Positions 3-12,292 of a stretch of 16,350 bases of DNA are shown piece after piece. The translations under genes and the position numbers were made by a program. Position 1 is the stretch's first letter, and every line of letters begins with the position of its first letter. The stretch is taken from positions 1 to 16,350 of the forward strand of contig JALTLO010000102.1 of the NCBI GenBank assembly GCA_027001995.1, written 5' to 3'. The notes below the pieces were generated by a model. It was not told the DNA's origin. It saw nothing but the letters and a program-made list of their open reading frames with translations, and did not search any database. The DNA is from Planctomycetota bacterium (GTDB taxonomy: Bacteria > Planctomycetota > GCA-002687715 > DRQF01).

Positions 3-293
3 TCTATCACTCTTGATGCGGCCGCAGGCGATATAAATCTTACTCCAGCTTCATCCTATGATATTAATGTTCCAGCAAACATTGGGTTAACTTTTGGTGA
101 TGATGGTGACATGGAGCTGTACCGGGAATCCAGCGATCCGGGGGCGAATCTGGTGGTGGTGAGCACCCAAGGAGTCGCCGTCGATGGGGATGAAGTGCGG
201 GCCAAGGCCATTATTTACGACAGATCCCGGGCTCTTTGCGGTGAACTAGGGCTTCATGTCCGGAATTTGCCGAATTCCCCGGGTTTGTCGTGA
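3..293 (+). CDS. Partial open frame running in from the window edge; first ~36 codons resemble a phage tail-fibre-like segment; possibly chimeric
   Basis: Frame 3 is open from base 3 to TGA 291-293: SITLDAAAGDINLTPASSYDINVPANIGLTFGDDGD-MELYRESS... Hand count gives about 43% GC over 1-110 and about 64% over 111-210. Confidence 0.3.
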   Translation, partial: SITLDAAAGDINLTPASSYDINVPANIGLTFGDDGDMELYRESSDPGANLVVVSTQGVAVDGDEVRAKAIIYDRSRALCGELGLHVRNLPNSPGLS

Positions 294-322: not shown

Positions 323-351
323 CAGAGATGGAGTTTTTGGAGTTCGATGCC

Positions 352-1623
352 ATGTCTGCTTCGCAGAACAAAACTAGCGGTAGGTTGGGTAAGCTGTTCA
401 TGGGAGTTGTCTGCCTGTTGGGAATCGCTATTTCCCTTATGGCCTTCATGGTGGATCGCTTTTCGGTCCAAGCTCGAAACGATCTTCGTGTGGCGAATGA
501 AACTTCTCAAATGGCTCAGCAAATCAGGTCTCAGCGCAACTCCCGATCAGATACGCCTAACTCTCCTTATGCATCTGAGGATGTCCCATCCACTCTTTTG
601 GTTCATGATCAAGGGCGAGGAGAACAAGCTGCCAACAAGCTTGCAGTTCGAGAGAAAGTCTTCGAAGCCAAATCAGCGGAATTCTGGCAGCCGAACCGAG
701 CTCCCGAAGGTGGATACGACATAGAGCGCTCCATCGACCGGGCGGCGAGGGCCATAGCTAAACGAATTTGTGACGATGCTCATGAGCGGGCTCGGCGTGA
801 TTGGGAGATCGATACAATCGCGATCTCTGCTGATCCCAGTACCGGTGATTCCACCACGAATCGCAAAATTGTGCGGCGGGTGGCATCGCAAATTCGGGTG
901 CTGACCAATCTTTATGTAGCCGAAGGTGAGGAGTTGATTTCATCTCAGCTCTATCTGGTTTCGGGTCAGATGCGCTCGGGGTGGGGGCGGGTCATAGAGG
1001 CTGTGAGTGACGATAAACGTTTCGGCGTATCCGTGATTGTTGATGATAAGATGCTTCCCATGCTCGAGATTCCTAAGAACTGGGAGGGGCGCTGGGAGAT
1101 TAGTTTCCATACGGACAATCAGATGAGCGCGGAATTTGCTCGGGCTGATGCTATGGATGGTTTGTACGCCAGGATAGCCACCCGTCTGTGGATTATTGCC
1201 CGATCTGAAAACGATGTGGCACCAGAAGATAAAGACGAATTCATGATGTTGGTCAGGCGTCACTATCCCCTTGATCTTCTCGTGGGCATGGGACGTCGAG
1301 CTCTCCAGCCCATTCGTGTGATCATGGAAGATGAGGATGGAAACGCGGATGCTGTCTACTATCAAACTGAAGTCGTTTGGTCGGGGAAGAACAACCAGTT
1401 ACGAGGATACTCGGATGCCATCGCTGATATGATTCGCACACGCAAGCGCGCGCCATTTGTACGATTAGGCCTGTCTCTCGGTCTGTGCGTCCTATCGCTT
1501 TTGACATGGTTGAGGGTCGATTGGTGGTTGAAAGGTCACTATTCCCTCATGAACAAGGTTACATTTGTTACTCTAACAGCCTTCTTTGTGGCTGTTGTTT
1601 GGAATTACCCACTCCATGGTTAA
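352..1623 (+). CDS. Hypothetical membrane protein (one N-terminal TM, large probably extracytoplasmic domain, two C-terminal TMs); candidate sensor
   Basis: Long ORF (track start 328; ATG 352 preferred because GGAG 339-342 lies 9 nt upstream). Hydrophobic segments LFMGVVCLLGIAISLMAFMV, LGLSLGLCVLSLLTWL, VTFVTLTAFFVAVVW. Confidence 0.85.
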   Translation: MSASQNKTSGRLGKLFMGVVCLLGIAISLMAFMVDRFSVQARNDLRVANETSQMAQQIRSQRNSRSDTPNSPYASEDVPSTLLVHDQGRGEQAANKLAVREKVFEAKSAEFWQPNRAPEGGYDIERSIDRAARAIAKRICDDAHERARRDWEIDTIAISADPSTGDSTTNRKIVRRVASQIRVLTNLYVAEGEELISSQLYLVSGQMRSGWGRVIEAVSDDKRFGVSVIVDDKMLPMLEIPKNWEGRWEISFHTDNQMSAEFARADAMDGLYARIATRLWIIARSENDVAPEDKDEFMMLVRRHYPLDLLVGMGRRALQPIRVIMEDEDGNADAVYYQTEVVWSGKNNQLRGYSDAIADMIRTRKRAPFVRLGLSLGLCVLSLLTWLRVDWWLKGHYSLMNKVTFVTLTAFFVAVVWNYPLHG

Positions 1624-1705
1624 GTCCGAAGAAAAATTGACGGTTTCAGGGGTCTCCCCTCAAGTGGGCGACACCGCGCGTGACCTCAGCGAGAAAAGGC
1701 AAGAG

Positions 1706-2998
1706 ATGGATTGGGAAAGCTTCTTCACACACTATCGCAAGCCCGGTTTTATTCCAGGCTATGAGATCGTCAACAAGCTGGGCAGTGGTGTCTTTGGCGA
1801 GGTCTACAAGGCCCGCAAGGAATCCATCGGCAAGTTTTACGCCATCAAATTTCTGAAAGTCTCGGACGAAAAAGTCAGCGAGGCTATCTTTAAGGAGTTG
1901 GAGTCCCTTCGCTACTTTGCGCAGATTGACCACCCCCACTTGGTTAGCATTGAAGATCAAGGGGAAGTCATGGGGATTCCCTATATCGTCATGGGCTATG
2001 CCGGGGATAACACCCTTAAGAAACGATTGAAGGATGGGCCTCTGCCTCTTGCGGATGTGGCAGCTATCTTGCGTCAAGTTTGTTCTGGGGTTGCAGCGCT
2101 TCACGAAAAATCAATCATTCATTTTGATTTGAAGCCAGCCAATATTTTCATGAAGGGTGACCATGCTCGGGTGGGGGACTACGGACTTTCGAAATTGGTG
2201 AGCGAGTCTCACATGACCATGTCCATCGGTCGGGGTACGCCTTACTACATGGCTCCGGAAATGCTGACCCGTAAAGGCGATCATCGCAGTGATGTTTATT
2301 CTCTGGGGACCATCGTTTACGAGATGGTCACAGGGGACGTGCCCTTCAAGGGCGACAGCGAATGGGAAGTCTTGAAGAAACACGAGAGCGAGAATGTGTC
2401 TATTCCCGCCAATGTGGAAGAACCGTTTCGGAGTATCATTTTGCGGGCCATGGCCAAGGAACCGGACCAGCGGTTTCAATCGGCCTCTGAGATCCTTCAG
2501 ATGTTAGATGGCCACGCTGTTGTAGCTTCCACGTCAACCCCGACACCTATGCCCGCACCCACGAAAGACGATTCTTCACCACTAGGAGGAATCGTACCAC
2601 CGCCGTTGCCCATTAAGAAATTAGCTGCAGGGAGGCAGGCACGCCGGGTGGGGCGTCGAGTGCGCAAGAACCTTGAGGGCGTTTTGGAGCAGATCCAGTC
2701 TGCTGGGGGCGACGCTCGGAAAATCGTAGAAGGTGTGAAGAGGGGGATCCCCAAAAAGCCTCTGAGCGACTCCTTCTACTCGGACTTTGAAGAGCCAGAA
2801 GCTGCTCTCCAGGGGGGCGAAAAGCCAAAGAAACAGACTTTTATTCTGTTTCGACCCATAAAGGCTCTGTTTCGGGCTGTGTGTAAAGGGTTAGGCGTTT
2901 TCTTTACAAACTTTTTCCGCTACGCTCTCGTCATTGCAATTACGATTGGGCTCGCAACTCTGATTCACGCCGCTCTTGAGGGCCAACTCGGAAGCTGA
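1706..2998 (+). CDS. Hanks-type serine/threonine protein kinase, non-RD (HFD), with C-terminal membrane anchor
   Basis: GSGVFGEV glycine loop, YAIK lysine, IIHFDLKPANI catalytic loop, DYG, GTPYYMAPE, SDVYSLG; Pro/Thr-rich linker; C-terminal hydrophobic YALVIAITIGLATLIHAAL. Start ATG 1706 or ATG 1616 (just upstream of the previous gene's stop). Confidence 0.95.
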   Translation: MDWESFFTHYRKPGFIPGYEIVNKLGSGVFGEVYKARKESIGKFYAIKFLKVSDEKVSEAIFKELESLRYFAQIDHPHLVSIEDQGEVMGIPYIVMGYAGDNTLKKRLKDGPLPLADVAAILRQVCSGVAALHEKSIIHFDLKPANIFMKGDHARVGDYGLSKLVSESHMTMSIGRGTPYYMAPEMLTRKGDHRSDVYSLGTIVYEMVTGDVPFKGDSEWEVLKKHESENVSIPANVEEPFRSIILRAMAKEPDQRFQSASEILQMLDGHAVVASTSTPTPMPAPTKDDSSPLGGIVPPPLPIKKLAAGRQARRVGRRVRKNLEGVLEQIQSAGGDARKIVEGVKRGIPKKPLSDSFYSDFEEPEAALQGGEKPKKQTFILFRPIKALFRAVCKGLGVFFTNFFRYALVIAITIGLATLIHAALEGQLGS

Positions 2999-3037: not shown

Positions 3038-3673
3038 GTGCCCAGAAATAAAAACGACTACGACATAGGGAAACTCCAAGATCACGATGAACGTGAGTGG
3101 CAAGATCTGCAAACGGACTACCATCGTCGCATCTACTTTTACGTGAAGCGTCAGGTTGGCAACCCAGACGCTGCGGAAGATGTCACGTCTGAAACTTTCT
3201 TGGGGGCTCTTCGAGGCATCGGACGCTTTGATGAGCGTTACAATATCGAACAATACCTGTTCGGAATCGCCCGCAAGAAAGCCATAGATTGGCTGCGAAA
3301 GTCAGGGCATGAAACCCAGATGTCCTCCAAAGACGATGATTCCTCCAGCTTCTTCGCCAGCATCCCAGCAGCGGGTATGTCACCCACGCAGCTCTCGATT
3401 GTTCGGGAGAAGATTGGGCGGCAACGGGGCGCTCTGGTGGAGATTCTCCAAGAGTATGTGGGCGACCTGTGGGAGTCTAGAGATTTTAGGCGGCTTAAGA
3501 CCGTCGAGCTTGTTTTCCTCAGGAATTGGAAGCATAAGCCCATCGCGGAACTGCTTGGCTATCAGGACGAGAAATCCGTTGCTGGTGTGAAGTTTCGGGC
3601 GATTCGTGATTTTCAGGATCGACTGAGAAATAGAGACCCGAATCATTCCCTATTTTCAAAGCTCTGGGAGTAA
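3038..3673 (+). CDS. ECF-type RNA polymerase sigma factor (kinase-associated, planctomycete-type)
   Basis: Sigma2 region (RIYFYVKRQVGNPDAAEDVTSETF...YLFGIARKKAIDWLRK) and sigma4 HTH (VELVFLRNWKHKPIAELLG...SVAGVKFRA); 211 aa, no regions 1 or 3; GTG start. Confidence 0.93.
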   Translation: MPRNKNDYDIGKLQDHDEREWQDLQTDYHRRIYFYVKRQVGNPDAAEDVTSETFLGALRGIGRFDERYNIEQYLFGIARKKAIDWLRKSGHETQMSSKDDDSSSFFASIPAAGMSPTQLSIVREKIGRQRGALVEILQEYVGDLWESRDFRRLKTVELVFLRNWKHKPIAELLGYQDEKSVAGVKFRAIRDFQDRLRNRDPNHSLFSKLWE

Positions 3674-3676
3674 ACC

Positions 3677-4090
3677 ATGTCAAATTGCCCACCAGCCAGC
3701 GACCTAGTTGACGCTGTTGAATCGGGGACTATGAACCTAGTTCTAGATGACCATGTTGAACTTTGCTCTGCTTGTCGATCTATGTTGTCGAGCTTGCGGG
3801 AAGAATCTGAAGGACTGACTATCAGTGTAGGTGACCTTTGGGTGAAGGAGCGCATTTCTTGCCCTCATCGTGATATTCTCTTGGCTTTCGTCAACAAGTC
3901 ACTCTCAAAGCAAGAGATGGACTACATTGACTTTCATCTCAACCAGATCGCCTGTCCCTACTGCCAAGCTGAGGCCACTGAGTTAGAGGATTTGATGTCC
4001 AAGGAAAGTGCAAAGAATCTGGAAGATTCCCTGGAGCGTTCCTTGCGTCGCTCAGCGGCTGTCTTGGCTGAAGAGAGGCAGGGTAGTTGA
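3677..4090 (+). CDS. Small soluble protein with two zinc-binding anti-sigma (ZAS)-like modules; putative anti-sigma factor
   Basis: C4-x21-H26-x3-C30-x2-C33 and C62-x24-H87-x5-C93-x2-C96; starts 3 nt after the sigma stop; no TM segment. Confidence 0.85.
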   Translation: MSNCPPASDLVDAVESGTMNLVLDDHVELCSACRSMLSSLREESEGLTISVGDLWVKERISCPHRDILLAFVNKSLSKQEMDYIDFHLNQIACPYCQAEATELEDLMSKESAKNLEDSLERSLRRSAAVLAEERQGS

Positions 4091-4133: not shown

Positions 4134-4170
4134 AAGCGCTGCCAGGCCATCTGGCAGCGTTTTTTGTTTT
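4134..4170 (+). terminator. Rho-independent terminator of the kinase/ECF operon
   Basis: Stem CGCTGCCAG 4137-4145 / CTGGCAGCG 4151-4159, loop GCCAT, followed by TTTTTTGTTTT. Confidence 0.9.
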
Positions 4171-4179
4171 GAAATTGAA

Positions 4180-4205
4180 GAGAATATCTGTTGACCTCAT
4201 CGAAT
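4180..4205 (+). promoter_or_regulatory. Putative ECF sigma-dependent promoter (GAGAATAT-N14-GAAT) of the PspA-like gene
   Basis: GAGAATAT 4180-4187, 14-nt spacer, GAAT 4202-4205, just after a terminator; same boxes and spacing as 297-322. Confidence 0.6.
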
Positions 4206-4263
4206 GCTCCTTCAGTCCCGACCGACCATATGGGTCGGCCCAGCACACAAGGAGTTCGAAATC

Positions 4264-5097
4264 ATGTTCAAGAAATTGGCAATGACTGTCGTCGCCGCAT
4301 CTGTCTTGGCGTTCATTTTCTTAGGTAGTTCGGCCTTTAGCCACATTTCTCAAGGAGTGGGTTGGGTCAGAGGCCAAGTCGCAGAAAAGGTTCCAGTCGA
4401 ATATAAGTTGAAGAAGGCTCGTCAGGCCATCAAGGCAGCGGAGCCTAAGATCAGGAAATACAACCGCGATATCGCCGAGAAGCAAGTAGAGATTCGCTAC
4501 CTGGAGCGGGAATTGGCCCAGTTGAGGCATGAACAGGCCCAAGCCCGCCTCACCCTCAAAGCTCAATGGCAGACTCTGCAAGTGGAGAAAGCGTCTTATC
4601 GCTTCCTTGGTAATACAGTCAGCCGCAAGAGCATGCGCCAAGACGCTGCACTCCGGTTTCGCCGTTTGAAGTCTGGGGACCAATTGGTCGCCAGCAAGAC
4701 TGAGCGTTTGGCCGCACTTCAAAATGGGCTCAGCCATATCCATGAAGCTTTAGAAAGCTTAGGCAATAAACGAGAAGAATTGATCACCCTTTGTGACGTC
4801 TTGGAGGCCAAGATGCGTGAGACAGAGGCAAAGAAGGCCGCCACAATGGATATCTATGTCGATCAAGACCACAGCGACTTAGTGGAGGCCGCAGAAATCT
4901 TGGCCAATGTTGAGAAACAATTGGATGTGGAAATGCAAGTGATGGAAAATAATCGGCCTTTGCTGGGGGAAAGCCGTATCGTCATTGAGACGCCTTTGGA
5001 CTTGAACTCTCAAATTTCCTCCTATCTGGAAGGTGAGACCAGTGGAGATGCTGGTGAGGAATCCGTCATAGCGACGAGCTTGGTCGACGTGCGCTAA
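4264..5097 (+). CDS. PspA/IM30-like coiled-coil protein with N-terminal signal peptide or membrane anchor
   Basis: AAGGAG RBS before ATG 4264; MFKK plus hydrophobic LAMTVVAASVLAFIFLG; long K/E/Q/A/L-rich helical body with PspA-like segments (FSHISQGV...AEKVP; DHSDLVEAAEILANVEKQLD). The CDS is solid; the family call is by eye. Confidence 0.75.
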   Translation: MFKKLAMTVVAASVLAFIFLGSSAFSHISQGVGWVRGQVAEKVPVEYKLKKARQAIKAAEPKIRKYNRDIAEKQVEIRYLERELAQLRHEQAQARLTLKAQWQTLQVEKASYRFLGNTVSRKSMRQDAALRFRRLKSGDQLVASKTERLAALQNGLSHIHEALESLGNKREELITLCDVLEAKMRETEAKKAATMDIYVDQDHSDLVEAAEILANVEKQLDVEMQVMENNRPLLGESRIVIETPLDLNSQISSYLEGETSGDAGEESVIATSLVDVR

Positions 5098-5124: not shown

Positions 5125-5163
5125 AAAAAAGACCCCGGAGACCAGTGGTTCTCTGGGGTTTTC
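5125..5163. terminator. Rho-independent terminator, possibly bidirectional
   Basis: A6 tract 5125-5130, stem ACCCCGGAGA 5132-5141 / TCTCTGGGGT 5150-5159 (one G-U), then T run. Confidence 0.8.
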
Positions 5164-5277
5164 TCTTGGATTATGGCTTCGGAGCTGTCTTGTTGTGAGA
5201 TTTCTTGGCAATTTAGCCTAACCTGTTCGTGAGATCGTGAATAATTCGGGTCAAGCGAACAGGATAAAATGAGGCCC

Positions 5278-5305
5278 TTGCGACCATGGCGTGAAAGCTT
5301 AATAT
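5278..5305 (+). promoter_or_regulatory. Possible sigma70-type promoter
   Basis: TTGCGA-N16-TAATAT upstream of the GAGGAG RBS (5323-5328) and GTG 5335. Confidence 0.3.
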
Positions 5306-5334
5306 TCGTCAACCGAGGGTCTGAGGAGATAAGA

Positions 5335-6141
5335 GTGACTGATAGTACAAATAGCAAAGACGAAGCTCGCGATGAGCATGGTAATCTTCTGAGTCTTGCC
5401 AGCAAGGCAGACAGTCGGAAACCAGAAGACGTCCGCGATGGGGCCTGGCGTAAGGCTCGCATTGCCGCAGGCCACATGGTTGTCATCCGATCGCATTTTA
5501 AGTCCATCTTCTTGATCCCCCTAGCCATCATTTCCTTGGTTTGTGGCATTGCCGTGACCATGAATCCTGATGCTGACAATTGGCGTCACGCCTGGGGACT
5601 TATTTGGATTTTCGGTTTTATGTTCTACATGAACATTTTCATCTTTGAATGGAACCGTGCCTGGACCATCGTTCTCTTGGGAGGGATGGTGACCACGGTG
5701 GCCATCATGTTTGCCATAAATTCCGATGCCCTTCCGGTCTTCTCTGGGTTGTGGGACTGGCTCAAAGGCCTGAAATTAGATTTGAGTCCTCAGGCCTATA
5801 TGTTCTTCTTCATGTTTTTTGCCTTCTGCGCCGCTGTCTCGTGGATCAAAACCCGTTTGAATTATGTGGTGATCGAGCACAATGAGATGCAGATCTATCG
5901 CAATGCCTTCTTTGGCGACCGGGAACGTATCTCCATGATGAATCCACGGATTGAAGTCAAAGTTCAAGACATGGTGGAGTATTTCCATCCCTTCTATCGC
6001 TCAGGAACTGTTGTTGTTCATGCACCAACCAAGACGATTATCCTCGACAACGTTCTGGGCATTCGCAGAATTGAGCGGATCACGGATCGTCTGGGAAGCA
6101 CCTTGAGTGTCCGCGTTGAGAATGAAGGCCATCCCAACTAA
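5335..6141 (+). CDS. Multi-pass membrane protein (about 4 TM) with C-terminal bacterial PH-like domain
   Basis: GAGGAG RBS plus GTG 5335 (track start 5269); four hydrophobic segments, then a beta-rich tail YVVIEHNEMQIYR...SGTVVVH...IILDNV resembling bPH domains (by eye). Confidence 0.8.
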   Translation: MTDSTNSKDEARDEHGNLLSLASKADSRKPEDVRDGAWRKARIAAGHMVVIRSHFKSIFLIPLAIISLVCGIAVTMNPDADNWRHAWGLIWIFGFMFYMNIFIFEWNRAWTIVLLGGMVTTVAIMFAINSDALPVFSGLWDWLKGLKLDLSPQAYMFFFMFFAFCAAVSWIKTRLNYVVIEHNEMQIYRNAFFGDRERISMMNPRIEVKVQDMVEYFHPFYRSGTVVVHAPTKTIILDNVLGIRRIERITDRLGSTLSVRVENEGHPN

Positions 6142-9131: not shown

Positions 9132-10502
9132 TTGCTTCTTTGTGAAGGCTTGAATGCCCAGGGCACTCCATGTCCCGGAAGGAATGATGACAATTTTAAC
9201 ACTGGGACCTGTTGTTCGAATGTCACCCCCGACTATGTCTTTCCTGCTGAATTTCCTCCGAACGGTATCATGAACTCTGGCTCCTATGCTTGCATTGAGA
9301 ATTGCGAATCGGTCACTTCCTTTGACACCACAGTGTTGCTACAGATGTTTCCTCATCCTGGTGTTAATGTCTTTTCAAACGGCCAGCCTGCTTGCGATGA
9401 AGTCGCCTTTGTTCTTCAAGTCCAAGAAACGAGTACTCCGGTCCCTGCGTTTAGCTTTTCCGTTGGTACCAACCCACCTGTAAATAATGTGCGTGGCAGT
9501 TTTCTCTCCGGTAAATATATGCGCACTTGGGTGACCATCGACGGGGATGGTTTCGTCCATCAATTTTGGCGTTTCCTCGTTTCGGGAGATGCGGTTTGGC
9601 AAAGTGGAGCGCGCCCCTGCCCAATCCCTCTTTGTGTTTCGACGTTCCAAGTGATGTCTATGCATGGCCATATTGATATCGAATGTACAGCCTTCAACCC
9701 TCACCTCGGGGAATACGGCTGGAGTTTCAACACTCAACTCACGCATTACGATGGTTGCTTGTCTCATATTAACATTCCTCAGAATCCCAGGAATTTGCCA
9801 CCATCACCCCCGAGGCATGATGGGATGTCCTATCACTTTGTGGCACCAGGTGGTTTTAGTTGGTTAGCGAATCCACCAGCTGCATCAGACCTCAATACGG
9901 CATCAAATCTTGATGCACTTCGTAGTACGGTGTCGCACATAACAACGACAATGGGCCAACCACCGCTCCAAGTGTGCCAATCAGAGGCAGCATTGCGCGC
10001 AGTGGGGTTGGCTGTTTCGGTGACATGTGCCTGTGGGCTACCCGGAGGTACCTATTACAATCAAAGTTGGCCTGGAGGTGGGCCCAATGACAATGCGGCC
10101 TTATGTCCATTGGGAGTCGAGTATCCCTGGTCGGCATTTCCTTTGGTCCCCGAGATTCCGACTGGCTTTGTTCAGCAGTACCTAGGAGAGTATCCTCCAT
10201 CGGTGGGAGTGCCCTACGTTTTGAGGGGTGTCAGGATCTTCTCCGTCATTGGCACGGTCAATTATGAAGACTTCTGTGACAAAAGGCCCCTTACTCAAAA
10301 GGAAACTACCCACGTTATTTTTGGGTCGAATCACATTTACGACCCTGAGCGCCAGAATGAGCCTATGCTGTTTGCGAGTTTTACGACTTTCGGCCCATCG
10401 ACGGACATGCTTTTGGACTTTGGCAATAATGTGACCGACATAGACGGCCTTCTCGCAGGGGAACCAGGTTGGACCAACATCTTATGGATGATCTCACGAT
10501 GA
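9132..10502 (+). CDS. Cys/Pro-rich secreted-type hypothetical protein; 5' leader appears frameshifted (possible pseudogene or assembly error)
   Basis: 456-codon ORF with 16 Cys and only 3 Lys. The RBS (GAGAGG 9108-9113) points to ATG 9122, which reads MKLFASL-stop in another frame; the long frame begins LLLCEGLNA/QG, like the end of a signal peptide. Confidence 0.8.
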   Translation: MLLCEGLNAQGTPCPGRNDDNFNTGTCCSNVTPDYVFPAEFPPNGIMNSGSYACIENCESVTSFDTTVLLQMFPHPGVNVFSNGQPACDEVAFVLQVQETSTPVPAFSFSVGTNPPVNNVRGSFLSGKYMRTWVTIDGDGFVHQFWRFLVSGDAVWQSGARPCPIPLCVSTFQVMSMHGHIDIECTAFNPHLGEYGWSFNTQLTHYDGCLSHINIPQNPRNLPPSPPRHDGMSYHFVAPGGFSWLANPPAASDLNTASNLDALRSTVSHITTTMGQPPLQVCQSEAALRAVGLAVSVTCACGLPGGTYYNQSWPGGGPNDNAALCPLGVEYPWSAFPLVPEIPTGFVQQYLGEYPPSVGVPYVLRGVRIFSVIGTVNYEDFCDKRPLTQKETTHVIFGSNHIYDPERQNEPMLFASFTTFGPSTDMLLDFGNNVTDIDGLLAGEPGWTNILWMISR

Positions 10503-12292
10503 ACAAAATTCGCATTTTTGTGGTGTGTTTGGGGTGCTGTGGTTTTTCACTGTTGGCGAAAGCCCAAAATACCTTCAACGTTCCCAGTGTGACCACACCC
10601 ACGATTCAATCAGCCATCGCACTTTCGGCTTCTGGTGACACTATCTTGGTTGCCGCCGGGACTTACCAAGAGAATCTCATTTGGCCGAACCATGACATTG
10701 TCATCTTAGGCGCTGGTATTGGTCAGAGTATTGTTGATGGTGGTTTGGTGGCACCTTGCGTGACTTACCCTGGGCCTTGCACCAATGCTTCGATCTTGGA
10801 CGGGTTTACCCTCAAGAAAGGCATGGGGGCACCCACGAACTACGGCTTCACGCCAGTTCCTGCCGGGGGAGGCCTTTACCTCAACAGCTTCGCGATTCCA
10901 GCACCGACTGTTCGCAACTGTGAGATCACCCAATGTGTGGCGAATCAAGCCGCGGCCATGTTGCTTTGGCGGGTGGGGTCGGCACAGTTTGAGAACTTAC
11001 ACATTCACGGTAATACGGTCTCCGCCATGGGATTGTCGGCCCCGAATATCATTGCCATTGATGTTTTTGCCCAAATTCAGCCTTTCCCGGCGGTCATACC
11101 TAGTTTTCGCAATTGTGTGATTGAGGGTCATAGCTACGTGCCGTCTCCCCCATCTCTTCTTGGCCGTTTGATTCATGTAAACAACGCGAGCATCCGCCTA
11201 AAAGGGTGTGAAATCAAGAACAACACGGTACCGGGTAGGATTATTGAACTGTCTCAAGCTGATCAAGTGATCATCGCTCAAAGTCGCTTCATTGGCAATA
11301 CGGTTGGTTCACCATTGTTGAATGGGAATGCAAATTCTTTGACGCTGAGGGATTGCCTCTTTTCGGGAAACAGTGGAGGAATAGGGGGCATCACCATTGG
11401 TCAAGGCACTGTTCTCAATTGTACGTTCGTAGGAAACCAAGGCCTCAATGTTCTTTTTGCTCCCGCTCCCTTTGTGATAGCAGGCAATTCAAACGCAAGC
11501 GTCACGAATTGTTTAATCTGGGACAACTATGATAGCAATGGTGCCGTGTTAGCAACACCGATCTTGGGCTCATCGGGAACACCTGCAATCACCAACAGCA
11601 ACATCCAAAACATGGGCGGAGTAGGAGTGGGAGGCATTGACGCAGATCCGCTCTTTGTTGATCCAGCCAATTCTGACTATCGTTTGCAGCCTGGGTCTCC
11701 TAGCCAAAACAGCGGTGCCAATAGCGGCAACTTTGTGTTGTCGGGGACGGACGTTCGCGGCTTGCCTCGGCTGCGACAAGGAGTGGTCGACATGGGATGC
11801 TATGAAAGCCAATCCATGGCTCACCATCCTGCAGCCAAAGGGCGCATTGGAGAACTCGTGGGTGGTCCTTACGACATTCTCGCCATCAACGGCACAGCCG
11901 GTGGCCCTTTGCGAAAAGTCGTCGTACCTTTGGGCTCGTCGTCAACCATGTCTATGCTTCAACCCTCCAATCTTCCTTTGCCCGCTAAGTTTGTGATTTT
12001 TGGTTTCCTCGGGGAAGCCAACTTTGACAGCGTTGTAAGCGTGCCCTTAGGCATTGGCAACATGATGTTTGCTCCTTCACCCTTAGTGCCACCATTCTTT
12101 CAGTCCATCTTCTTCATCTACACTGACAATTACAACACAGCTTCACCCCAGTTGGTCTCCTCCAACCCGACTCCATGGACCTCCGGTTTCGGCCCAACCA
12201 TTCCCTTTCCAATCACCCTCACCTTTCAAGGCGTCATAGAAGAATTAGGCACCTTTCGCCCAACGAACGCCATCATCTTCGAGGTGAAGTAG
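10499..12292 (+). CDS. Secreted right-handed parallel beta-helix (pectin lyase-like) protein with choice-of-anchor-Q-like segment and extra C-terminal domain
   Basis: ATGA overlap with the previous stop; signal peptide MNKIRIFVVCLGCCGFSLLAKA/Q; cap TIQSAIALSASGDTILVAAGTYQEN; repeats such as VRNCEITQC, LRDCLFSGN, VLNCTFVGN, VTNCLIWDN; DPLFVD...DYRLQPGSP...TDVRGLPR...VDMGCYE. Confidence 0.9.
   Translation: MNKIRIFVVCLGCCGFSLLAKAQNTFNVPSVTTPTIQSAIALSASGDTILVAAGTYQENLIWPNHDIVILGAGIGQSIVDGGLVAPCVTYPGPCTNASILDGFTLKKGMGAPTNYGFTPVPAGGGLYLNSFAIPAPTVRNCEITQCVANQAAAMLLWRVGSAQFENLHIHGNTVSAMGLSAPNIIAIDVFAQIQPFPAVIPSFRNCVIEGHSYVPSPPSLLGRLIHVNNASIRLKGCEIKNNTVPGRIIELSQADQVIIAQSRFIGNTVGSPLLNGNANSLTLRDCLFSGNSGGIGGITIGQGTVLNCTFVGNQGLNVLFAPAPFVIAGNSNASVTNCLIWDNYDSNGAVLATPILGSSGTPAITNSNIQNMGGVGVGGIDADPLFVDPANSDYRLQPGSPSQNSGANSGNFVLSGTDVRGLPRLRQGVVDMGCYESQSMAHHPAAKGRIGELVGGPYDILAINGTAGGPLRKVVVPLGSSSTMSMLQPSNLPLPAKFVIFGFLGEANFDSVVSVPLGIGNMMFAPSPLVPPFFQSIFFIYTDNYNTASPQLVSSNPTPWTSGFGPTIPFPITLTFQGVIEELGTFRPTNAIIFEVK

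Follow-up and report, generated by a model that had tools for sequence, protein, structure and literature searches.

A Divergent, Membrane-Anchored Protein Family of Planctomycetota with a PspA/Vipp1-Like Predicted Fold

Our computational analysis of a 16,350-nt stretch of planctomycete DNA (hereafter the window, which is contig C102 of a source genome that is 92% complete) revealed a gene for a 277-residue, membrane-anchored protein with a PspA/Vipp1 (ESCRT-III)-like predicted fold, a hydrophobic leader kept by almost all of its relatives, and a conserved linkage to Ser/Thr kinase and ECF sigma factor genes. The family is genuine and conserved, we found no explanation of it in the literature searched, and it is best described, by analogy, as a divergent, membrane-anchored branch that would work like PspA. 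Judging from the sequences and a structural model, we consider it fairly probable that its members form an exported, periplasm-facing, ESCRT-III-like envelope-stress polymer with a role in membrane remodelling or repair. Insertion of the leader into the membrane is highly probable, and descent from the ESCRT-III superfamily very likely.

Results

The family gene is an open frame on the forward strand (4264..5097) closed by a TAA stop. A visible ribosome-binding site (AAGGAG, 4249..4254, +) precedes the Met codon at 4264, which is the common start of ten close homologues in their alignment, and we therefore prefer this start over the upstream ATG at 4204. The features that the original prediction had read from the protein are present, namely MFKK followed by 17 uncharged hydrophobic residues (5-21), the stretch GSSAFS, an amphipathic helix (23-42) and the proline of AEKVP (P44), long helices, and an acidic tail. 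They do not reflect chance, because they are family-wide: across 148 aligned sequences with a mean column identity of 25%, residues G21, P44, A52, P61, L80, L173, L180, and D202 are each at least 90% conserved, and the leader recurs in 326 of 327 members. Comparison with its nine closest homologues shows that the protein has two extra residues at about residue 198-200 (YVDQDHS versus EVDHS; nt about 4855-4866), at the hinge between α3 and α4.

A profile search of 1.84 billion representative sequences returned 1,086 proteins at E≤0.001, of which 549 also passed ≤1e-10 and 74 passed ≤1e-30, with lengths of 260-300 residues in nearly all of the best 150 matches. The names seen in homologue searches and on Atlas clusters are those of Planctomycetota, and about 75 of the 80 genome records listed bear planctomycete names, a few others reading 'bacterium' or 'Deltaproteobacteria'. 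The gene was detected in 17 of 41 relatives and in 51 of the 151 genomes searched across the phylum (six of these with short, marginal matches only). Mostly in a single copy, it occurs in 81 of 81 genomes of one taxonomic family (f7) and in 111 of the 121 genomes belonging to one class, which we take from named genome records to be Planctomycetia. Since it is absent from many other lineages searched, it is not a core gene of the phylum. Some Planctomycetia genomes hold a second, more divergent copy (G171, G192, G196, G254, G258, G298, and others).

Public databases label members of the family 'hypothetical', 'Chromosome partition protein Smc', or 'signal peptide-containing protein'. The Smc label is a coiled-coil artefact. 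A long antiparallel coiled coil is common to both, but Smc is a protein of ~1,100 residues with ABC-ATPase heads and a hinge, whereas the 277-residue protein lacks both and scores ~20 bits against NCBIfam cut-offs of 567-729; we rejected this identity. Searches of Pfam, NCBIfam, and PDB sequences gave only generic coiled-coil matches, and in the Atlas three unnamed Planctomycetota clusters were matched, with no named match for a second family member. The sole member seen with the RefSeq name 'PspA/IM30 family protein' is WP_274333948.1; the basis of that name is not visible, and the protein has no Pfam PspA match.

The leader (residues 1-21; 4264..4326, +) consists of MFKK and 17 uncharged hydrophobic residues that end in a conserved (F/L)G, coinciding with a predicted helix at 2-20 and a hydropathy peak at 5-23. 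We scanned the 327 of 334 family sequences with a usable N-terminus alongside 57 PspA controls. An uncharged run of at least 15 residues (median 18) is present in 326 of the 327 members, and a 15-residue hydropathy of at least 1.5 (median 2.24) likewise in 326, compared with 1 of the 57 controls. The net charge ahead of the leader is at least +1 in every member and +2 in 269. MxKK is typical of Sec n-regions, and the family leader has both the basic n-region and the hydrophobic h-region of a Sec-type signal peptide. The pattern of MxKK with 17-18 uncharged residues is kept family-wide, G21 being conserved at 96% and glycines favoured at positions 8 and 16, and the most divergent members also retain a hydrophobic leader. 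The charge bias is moderate to weak, with the segment before the leader more positive than that after it in 201 of 327 members, equal in 87, and reversed in 39.

An AxA motif occurs in just 12 of 327 members, and (A/V)-x-S at residues 24-26 (S26, 85%) offers a possible alternative cleavage site. The lipobox cysteine of lipoproteins was found in 1 of 327 and the twin arginine of Tat substrates in 3 of 327. Because the leader is positionally conserved and AxA is scarce, we favour an uncleaved N-in anchor, which appears more likely than cleavage after Ser26. The claim of an export-type leader thus holds for a conserved, strongly hydrophobic, N-in segment of signal-peptide or transmembrane type in 326 of 327 members, although an uncleaved anchor would describe this segment better than a cleaved signal peptide. 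A hydropathy scan detected no second hydrophobic helix in the protein; given this, the basic N-terminus, and the hydrophobic leader, the C-terminus is likely to face the periplasm.

AlphaFold2, run on 148 sequences, yielded the single model on which the structure searches rest (mean pLDDT 81.7, pTM 0.64), with helices at 2-20, 23-42, 45-57/60-105, 121-194, 207-229, and 247-261, and strands at 111-114 and 117-120. Behind the leader lie an amphipathic helix α0 (23-42; 4330..4389, +), followed by the conserved P44; a long antiparallel hairpin (4396..4845, +) made of α1 (45-105), a β-hairpin insert at the tip (111-120; 4594-4623, +), and α2/3 (121-194); α4 (207-229; 4882..4950, +); and α5 (247-261; 5002..5046, +), whose contact with the hairpin tip would be the equivalent of ESCRT-III Interface 1. 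The hairpin helices (45-105 and 121-194) are predicted with a pLDDT of 89-97, and low-confidence linkers (196-209 and 231-243) flank α4 and precede α5. The hydrophobic moment of α0 is 1.33, with a family median of 1.29 and a value of 1.42 for PspA controls. In the model, the order and lengths of the helices after the leader match those of PspA/Vipp1 (α0, Pro, hairpin, α4, α5), the α0-α5 order being that laid out in the available text of Liu et al. (PMC8281802). The predicted strands bear out the earlier reading of SYRFLGNTVS as a β-hairpin-like insert, and the presence of the hairpin together with α0, α4, and α5, as well as the covariation of α5 with the tip described below, argues for the ESCRT-III arrangement over a generic coiled coil.

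Structure searches were no more than suggestive. Foldseek, run against 350,542 chains, placed Vipp1 at ranks 1-6 with E values of 3.7e-3 to 3e-2, none reaching E≤0.001; PspA (7abk) ranked 16, an Asgard ESCRT-IIIB 27, and CHMP2A-3 32, with V-ATPase D and Smc arms interleaved from rank 7. The best VIA-align matches are generic (Smc, dynein stalk, IpaB, YscO, EmrA, EnvC); Vipp1 follows at rank 13 (Z 10.1, rmsd 3.9, 156 residues aligned), surrounded by generic hairpins that score Z 9-11.6, and PspA (4whe) attains Z 9.8 (rmsd 2.1, 122 aligned) where generic hairpins reach 11.6. The Vipp1 alignment is one of the few that also cover α0 (model 25-198 on chain 2-157), and its identity of 17% is the highest listed.

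Homology to PF04012 is not demonstrable from sequence. A Pfam search gave no PF04012 match for the 277-residue protein and weak matches for 4 of 148 members (best E 1.3e-3), and no member tested reached the cut-off of 33.9 bits; no PspA or Vipp1 chain stood among the 60 of 69 PDB matches listed for the family profile. Profile-profile comparison with 19 planctomycete PspAs gave a probability of 84 (E 7e-6) over 171 collinear columns, and the local profile score against PspA was 41 compared with up to 35 for decoys. Such local scores are unstable and vary with the PspA set chosen: with 57 more diverse PspAs the value was 27.5, under CT398 (33.5) and reversed RmuC (33.4). Global alignment separated the two better, with three of four PspA profiles at 26-32 bits over 201-210 columns and four decoy families and a reversed profile at no more than 17; a narrow PspA clade gave only 12 bits. 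Against the family sequences, the CT398 HMM averaged 6.3 bits and the PspA HMMs 3.2. Because members fall below the score cut-off and are not soluble in character, we do not file the family in PF04012. The relatedness to PspA put forward in the original prediction is supported by the predicted fold and the α5-tip covariation.

Covariation is the strongest evidence for an ESCRT-III-like reading. Mean-field DCA was applied to 334 family sequences (effective number 261), and the counts that follow refer to the top 60 pairs, to region boxes drawn after the pair list had been seen, and to data uncorrected for kinship. The hairpin is recovered along i+j = 233-234 (I56-C177, R88-T146, E81-Q153, R53-E181), with 9 pairs on this diagonal where 1.1 are expected, and T104-F114 marks the packing of the β-hairpin. 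Ten pairs connect α5 with the hairpin tip (1.1 expected), including W102-S252 (rank 3), F132-L255, L135-L255, L98-L255, R95-L255, and Q91-L247, and five connect α5 with the remainder of the hairpin (2.8 expected). A further five join α0 to the start of α1 (0.45 expected), among them H27-Y47, W34-K50, and S26-K51. Off-register hairpin pairs number five to one side and none to the other. The α5-hairpin contact (Interface 1) is presented in the available text of Liu et al. (PMC8281802) as a defining feature of the ESCRT-III superfamily, found likewise by covariation.

Residues 224-225 of α4 covary with K183 and also with I77/R78, two contact sets that lie ~27 residues, or 40 Å as estimated from helical rise, apart along the hairpin. 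One conformation of a single chain could not satisfy both, which suggests that some of the contacts form between subunits. A PspA control (279 sequences, effective number 202; a smaller, 156-sequence version was too noisy) returned the same classes of pairs, with K94-E210, R80-I218, E76-E217, and A75-I214 between α5 and the tip, R142-E179, I29-H136, and I61-T105 elsewhere, and the off-register I57-S101. Position for position, K183-M224 of the family corresponds to R142-E179 of PspA, I56-C177 to I29-H136, and R88-T146 to I61-T105. The best overlap of the two contact maps, 51, is modestly above the null (permutations 40.7 ± 2.6, maximum 48; cyclic shifts up to 48), and registers one heptad apart are nearly tied, so the register is ambiguous.

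Five genes precede the family gene on the forward strand, among them those of a conserved module. These are the 3' end of an FHA-domain gene (3..293), 40% identical to the final 60 residues of FHA proteins from relatives; a gene for a membrane protein with one N-terminal and two C-terminal hydrophobic helices by hydropathy (328..1623), weakly like the membrane protein that intervenes between kinase and ECF factor in Planctomycetia operons (hhalign probability 28, E 6e-4); a Ser/Thr kinase gene with a C-terminal hydrophobic helix (1586..2998) and an ECF sigma factor gene (3038..3673), both recognised by domain searches and conserved loci; and a gene for a small zinc-finger protein (3677..4090), a probable zinc-binding anti-sigma factor (ZAS) by its weak ChrR anti-sigma match (E 0.0016), which adjoins the ECF gene in 12 of 12 wide loci. 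Two contigs hold parts of the FHA gene, contig C18:3-1829 (-) of the source genome matching residues 1-659 of relatives' FHA proteins. The start of the window may be misassembled, since its first ~29 codons are unlike those proteins and no overlap of contig ends was found.

A terminator-like hairpin with a T run (4137..4159, +; z -6.2) separates the anti-sigma gene from an ECF-type bipartite promoter motif, AATAT-N13-CGAA (4183..4204, +), and a second terminator-like hairpin lies 3' of the family gene (5129..5162, +; z -2.6). The family pattern AA[GT]AN-N13/14-CG[AT]A, derived from the same 146 regions on which it was counted, stands ~84 nt ahead of the gene in 105 of 146 loci, compared with 4 on the reverse strand, 4 in a coding control, and a mean of 2.5 in shuffles. 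A strict scan of the source genome gave 21 matches, 3 of them ahead of open frames with a ribosome-binding site, too few to define a regulon; these three are the family gene, an ABC-transporter ATPase (C98:13613 -), and a small probable lipoprotein (C177:83628 +), the latter two being possible regulon members.

At 154 loci the neighbours include a kinase in at least 97, an FHA protein in at least 76, the membrane protein in at least 55, and ECF/anti-sigma genes in at least 53, all lower bounds from flanks of 1.5-7 kb in a sample rich in Planctomycetaceae. In Planctomycetia the family gene comes first, ahead of the FHA, kinase, membrane protein, and ECF genes in that order; the wide loci from the source genome's order and related lineages (12 of 12) have their FHA, kinase, ECF, and zinc-finger genes upstream of the family gene, as the window does. 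Sigma-54 activators occur near several divergent members (11 loci), and one examined divergent-member locus has a B-box/LiaF-TM-like gene, a domain pairing noted around PSP systems in the available text of PMC11237479. At another, a second leader-bearing coiled-coil gene (L094:4899-5513) comes straight after the divergent member and may encode a partner. The conserved kinase/ECF context, on which the original prediction is silent, points to a stress response.

Two further genes of the window deserve mention. The product of 5269-6141 (+) is a four-helix membrane protein that has no Pfam match and whose soluble C-terminal domain may resemble bacterial PH domains; a gene of this type lies directly 3' of the family gene, ahead of speA, in 11 loci of the source genome's order. 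A 456-residue Cys/Pro-rich open frame (9132-10502, +), without a Pfam or NCBIfam match, lies upstream of a gene for a secreted-looking β-helix protein (10469-12292).

Among the genomes searched, canonical PspA was found neither in the source genome nor in its family (0 of 8), while it occurs beside the anchored family in 20 of 20 genomes of f7. Since f7 genomes have both, we rejected the idea that the anchored family is a simple replacement of canonical PspA. The canonical PspA of f7 is short (about 180-190 residues; L033-L035, L037-L039, L041, L047), seemingly without most of α3/α4 and with α5 kept. Elsewhere, a gene next to a canonical pspA encodes a fusion of a PspA-like hairpin with a transmembrane helix and a C-terminal region that resembles Kelch (L286:449-3172, on G080:C27; also on G112:C650 and G368:C23).

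Discussion

We propose the following model for the anchored family. A divergent PspA/Vipp1 protein of the ESCRT-III superfamily would have gained an N-terminal Sec-type leader, whose N-in insertion would leave α0 and the hairpin facing the periplasm. Envelope stress may be sensed by the linked module of membrane kinase, FHA protein, membrane protein, and ECF sigma factor, which would in turn switch on the family gene from its ECF-type promoter; the genetic context is observed, and the regulation is what we infer from it. Subunits may then polymerise as ESCRT-III protofilaments, with hairpins packed side by side in a staggered array, α4 crossing neighbouring hairpins, and α5 clamping the hairpin tip of a later subunit, an arrangement in which the contacts come from covariation and their assignment between subunits is our proposal. 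With α0 on the periplasmic leaflet, the polymer could stabilise, seal, or shape the inner membrane from outside the cytoplasm, as suggested by the mechanism of PspA and Vipp1.

Could the same protein be tethered to the membrane and yet face the cytoplasm, with its leader inserted N-out/C-in or lying in the plane of the membrane and taking the place of PspB/PspC/LiaI-type recruiters? The PspA proteins known so far work on the cytoplasmic side of the inner membrane, the kinase and FHA neighbours are cytoplasmic signalling proteins, and the model, the Foldseek ranks, and the covariation fit such an orientation equally well. The leader is also short (median uncharged run 18) and rich in glycine, and its charge bias is not absolute. 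We nevertheless regard this topology as unlikely: MxKK is a typical Sec n-region with a net charge of +2 in 269 of 327 members, several members carry the UniRef/Atlas name 'signal peptide-containing protein', and no second hydrophobic helix is available to return the chain. A role mainly as sensor or regulator of the kinase/ECF module, in place of membrane remodelling, would find its model in the inhibition of PspF by PspA and would suit both the close association with kinase, FHA, and ECF genes that is seen across classes and the sigma-54 activators at 11 loci near divergent members. We judge it very improbable, because the gene has its own ECF-type promoter and terminators on both sides in the window, as an output gene would, and contacts of the polymer type are conserved.

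It is quite unlikely, in our estimation, that the protein is an unrelated periplasmic coiled-coil hairpin, comparable to EnvC, efflux adaptors, or CT398/HP0958, whose likeness to PspA comes from generic helical hairpins. Such hairpins do head the VIA-align results (Smc, dynein stalk, IpaB, YscO, EmrA, EnvC), CT398 equals or beats PspA in local comparisons, and the Pfam PspA match is absent for the protein and weak in the 4 of 148 members that have one. These decoys, however, do not exceed 17 bits in global mode, and they leave unexplained the α0-Pro start, the two short C-terminal helices after flexible linkers, and the covariation of α5 with the tip.

How does the anchored family compare with known systems? 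With PspA, Vipp1 (IM30), and LiaH (PF04012) it shares the order α0-Pro-α1-α2/3 hairpin-α4-α5, an amphipathic α0, α5-tip covariation, a DL motif after the tip, D(V/I)xxE(L/V) at the start of α5, and a gene context of the envelope-stress type. Unlike them, it has an N-terminal hydrophobic leader (of a hydropathy seen in 1 of 57 PspA controls), a tip β-hairpin insert of about 14-16 residues, approximately one extra heptad and the conserved Pro61 in α1, and a shorter α5; it lies below the Pfam cut-off, is not soluble in character, and neighbours a module of Ser/Thr kinase, FHA, and ECF genes instead of pspBCF or liaRS. The combination of a single membrane anchor with a helical domain recalls LemA and MamQ; in the available text of the preprint describing them, periplasmic domains are described for MamQ and LemA2, lemA2 is controlled by the ECF sigma factor AlgU, and PspA is treated as a partner of LemA and not a relative (bioRxiv 10.64898/2026.10.21.759321). 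LemA is a different family, as the anchored protein has no LemA match at E≤1. The adjoining ECF sigma and Ser/Thr kinase genes resemble those of ECF43 and ECF59, described as kinase-associated ECF groups in the available text of PMC8103513. A further resemblance is that the Planctomycetia ECF factors examined (L291, L106) have xSED instead of DAED. The ECF factor of the window differs in keeping DAAED and in having a zinc-finger partner.

What is the relevance of such a family to planctomycete biology? We found no report of it, or of an exported ESCRT-III protein, in the available portions of the full-text literature (including PMC10936438, PMC11237479, PMC9239133, PMC7619361, PMC13312728, and two preprints). 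The protein probably works on the periplasmic side of the inner membrane, a place in which PspA/ESCRT-III-like proteins had not been known. An exported, anchored branch would carry the ESCRT-III superfamily over to the opposite face of the membrane. In planctomycetes the inner membrane is strongly invaginated and forms thin tubes, and the periplasm is enlarged, according to the available text of PMC5394234. Few of their membrane-shaping proteins have been identified. The gene occurs in 111 of the 121 genomes of its class, and a promoter and a regulator are predicted for it, which makes its role testable in a genetically tractable strain.

More speculatively, and with considerable doubt, a periplasm-facing ESCRT-III polymer that is nearly universal in the budding class might build, stabilise, or seal inner-membrane invaginations under kinase/ECF control, acting from within their necks or tubes. 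Eukaryotic ESCRT-III takes a reverse-topology position, the same as that of a polymer inside invagination necks. If true, this would be a case of ESCRT-III acting outside the cytoplasm and would provide a direct candidate for the unexplained membrane system of planctomycetes.
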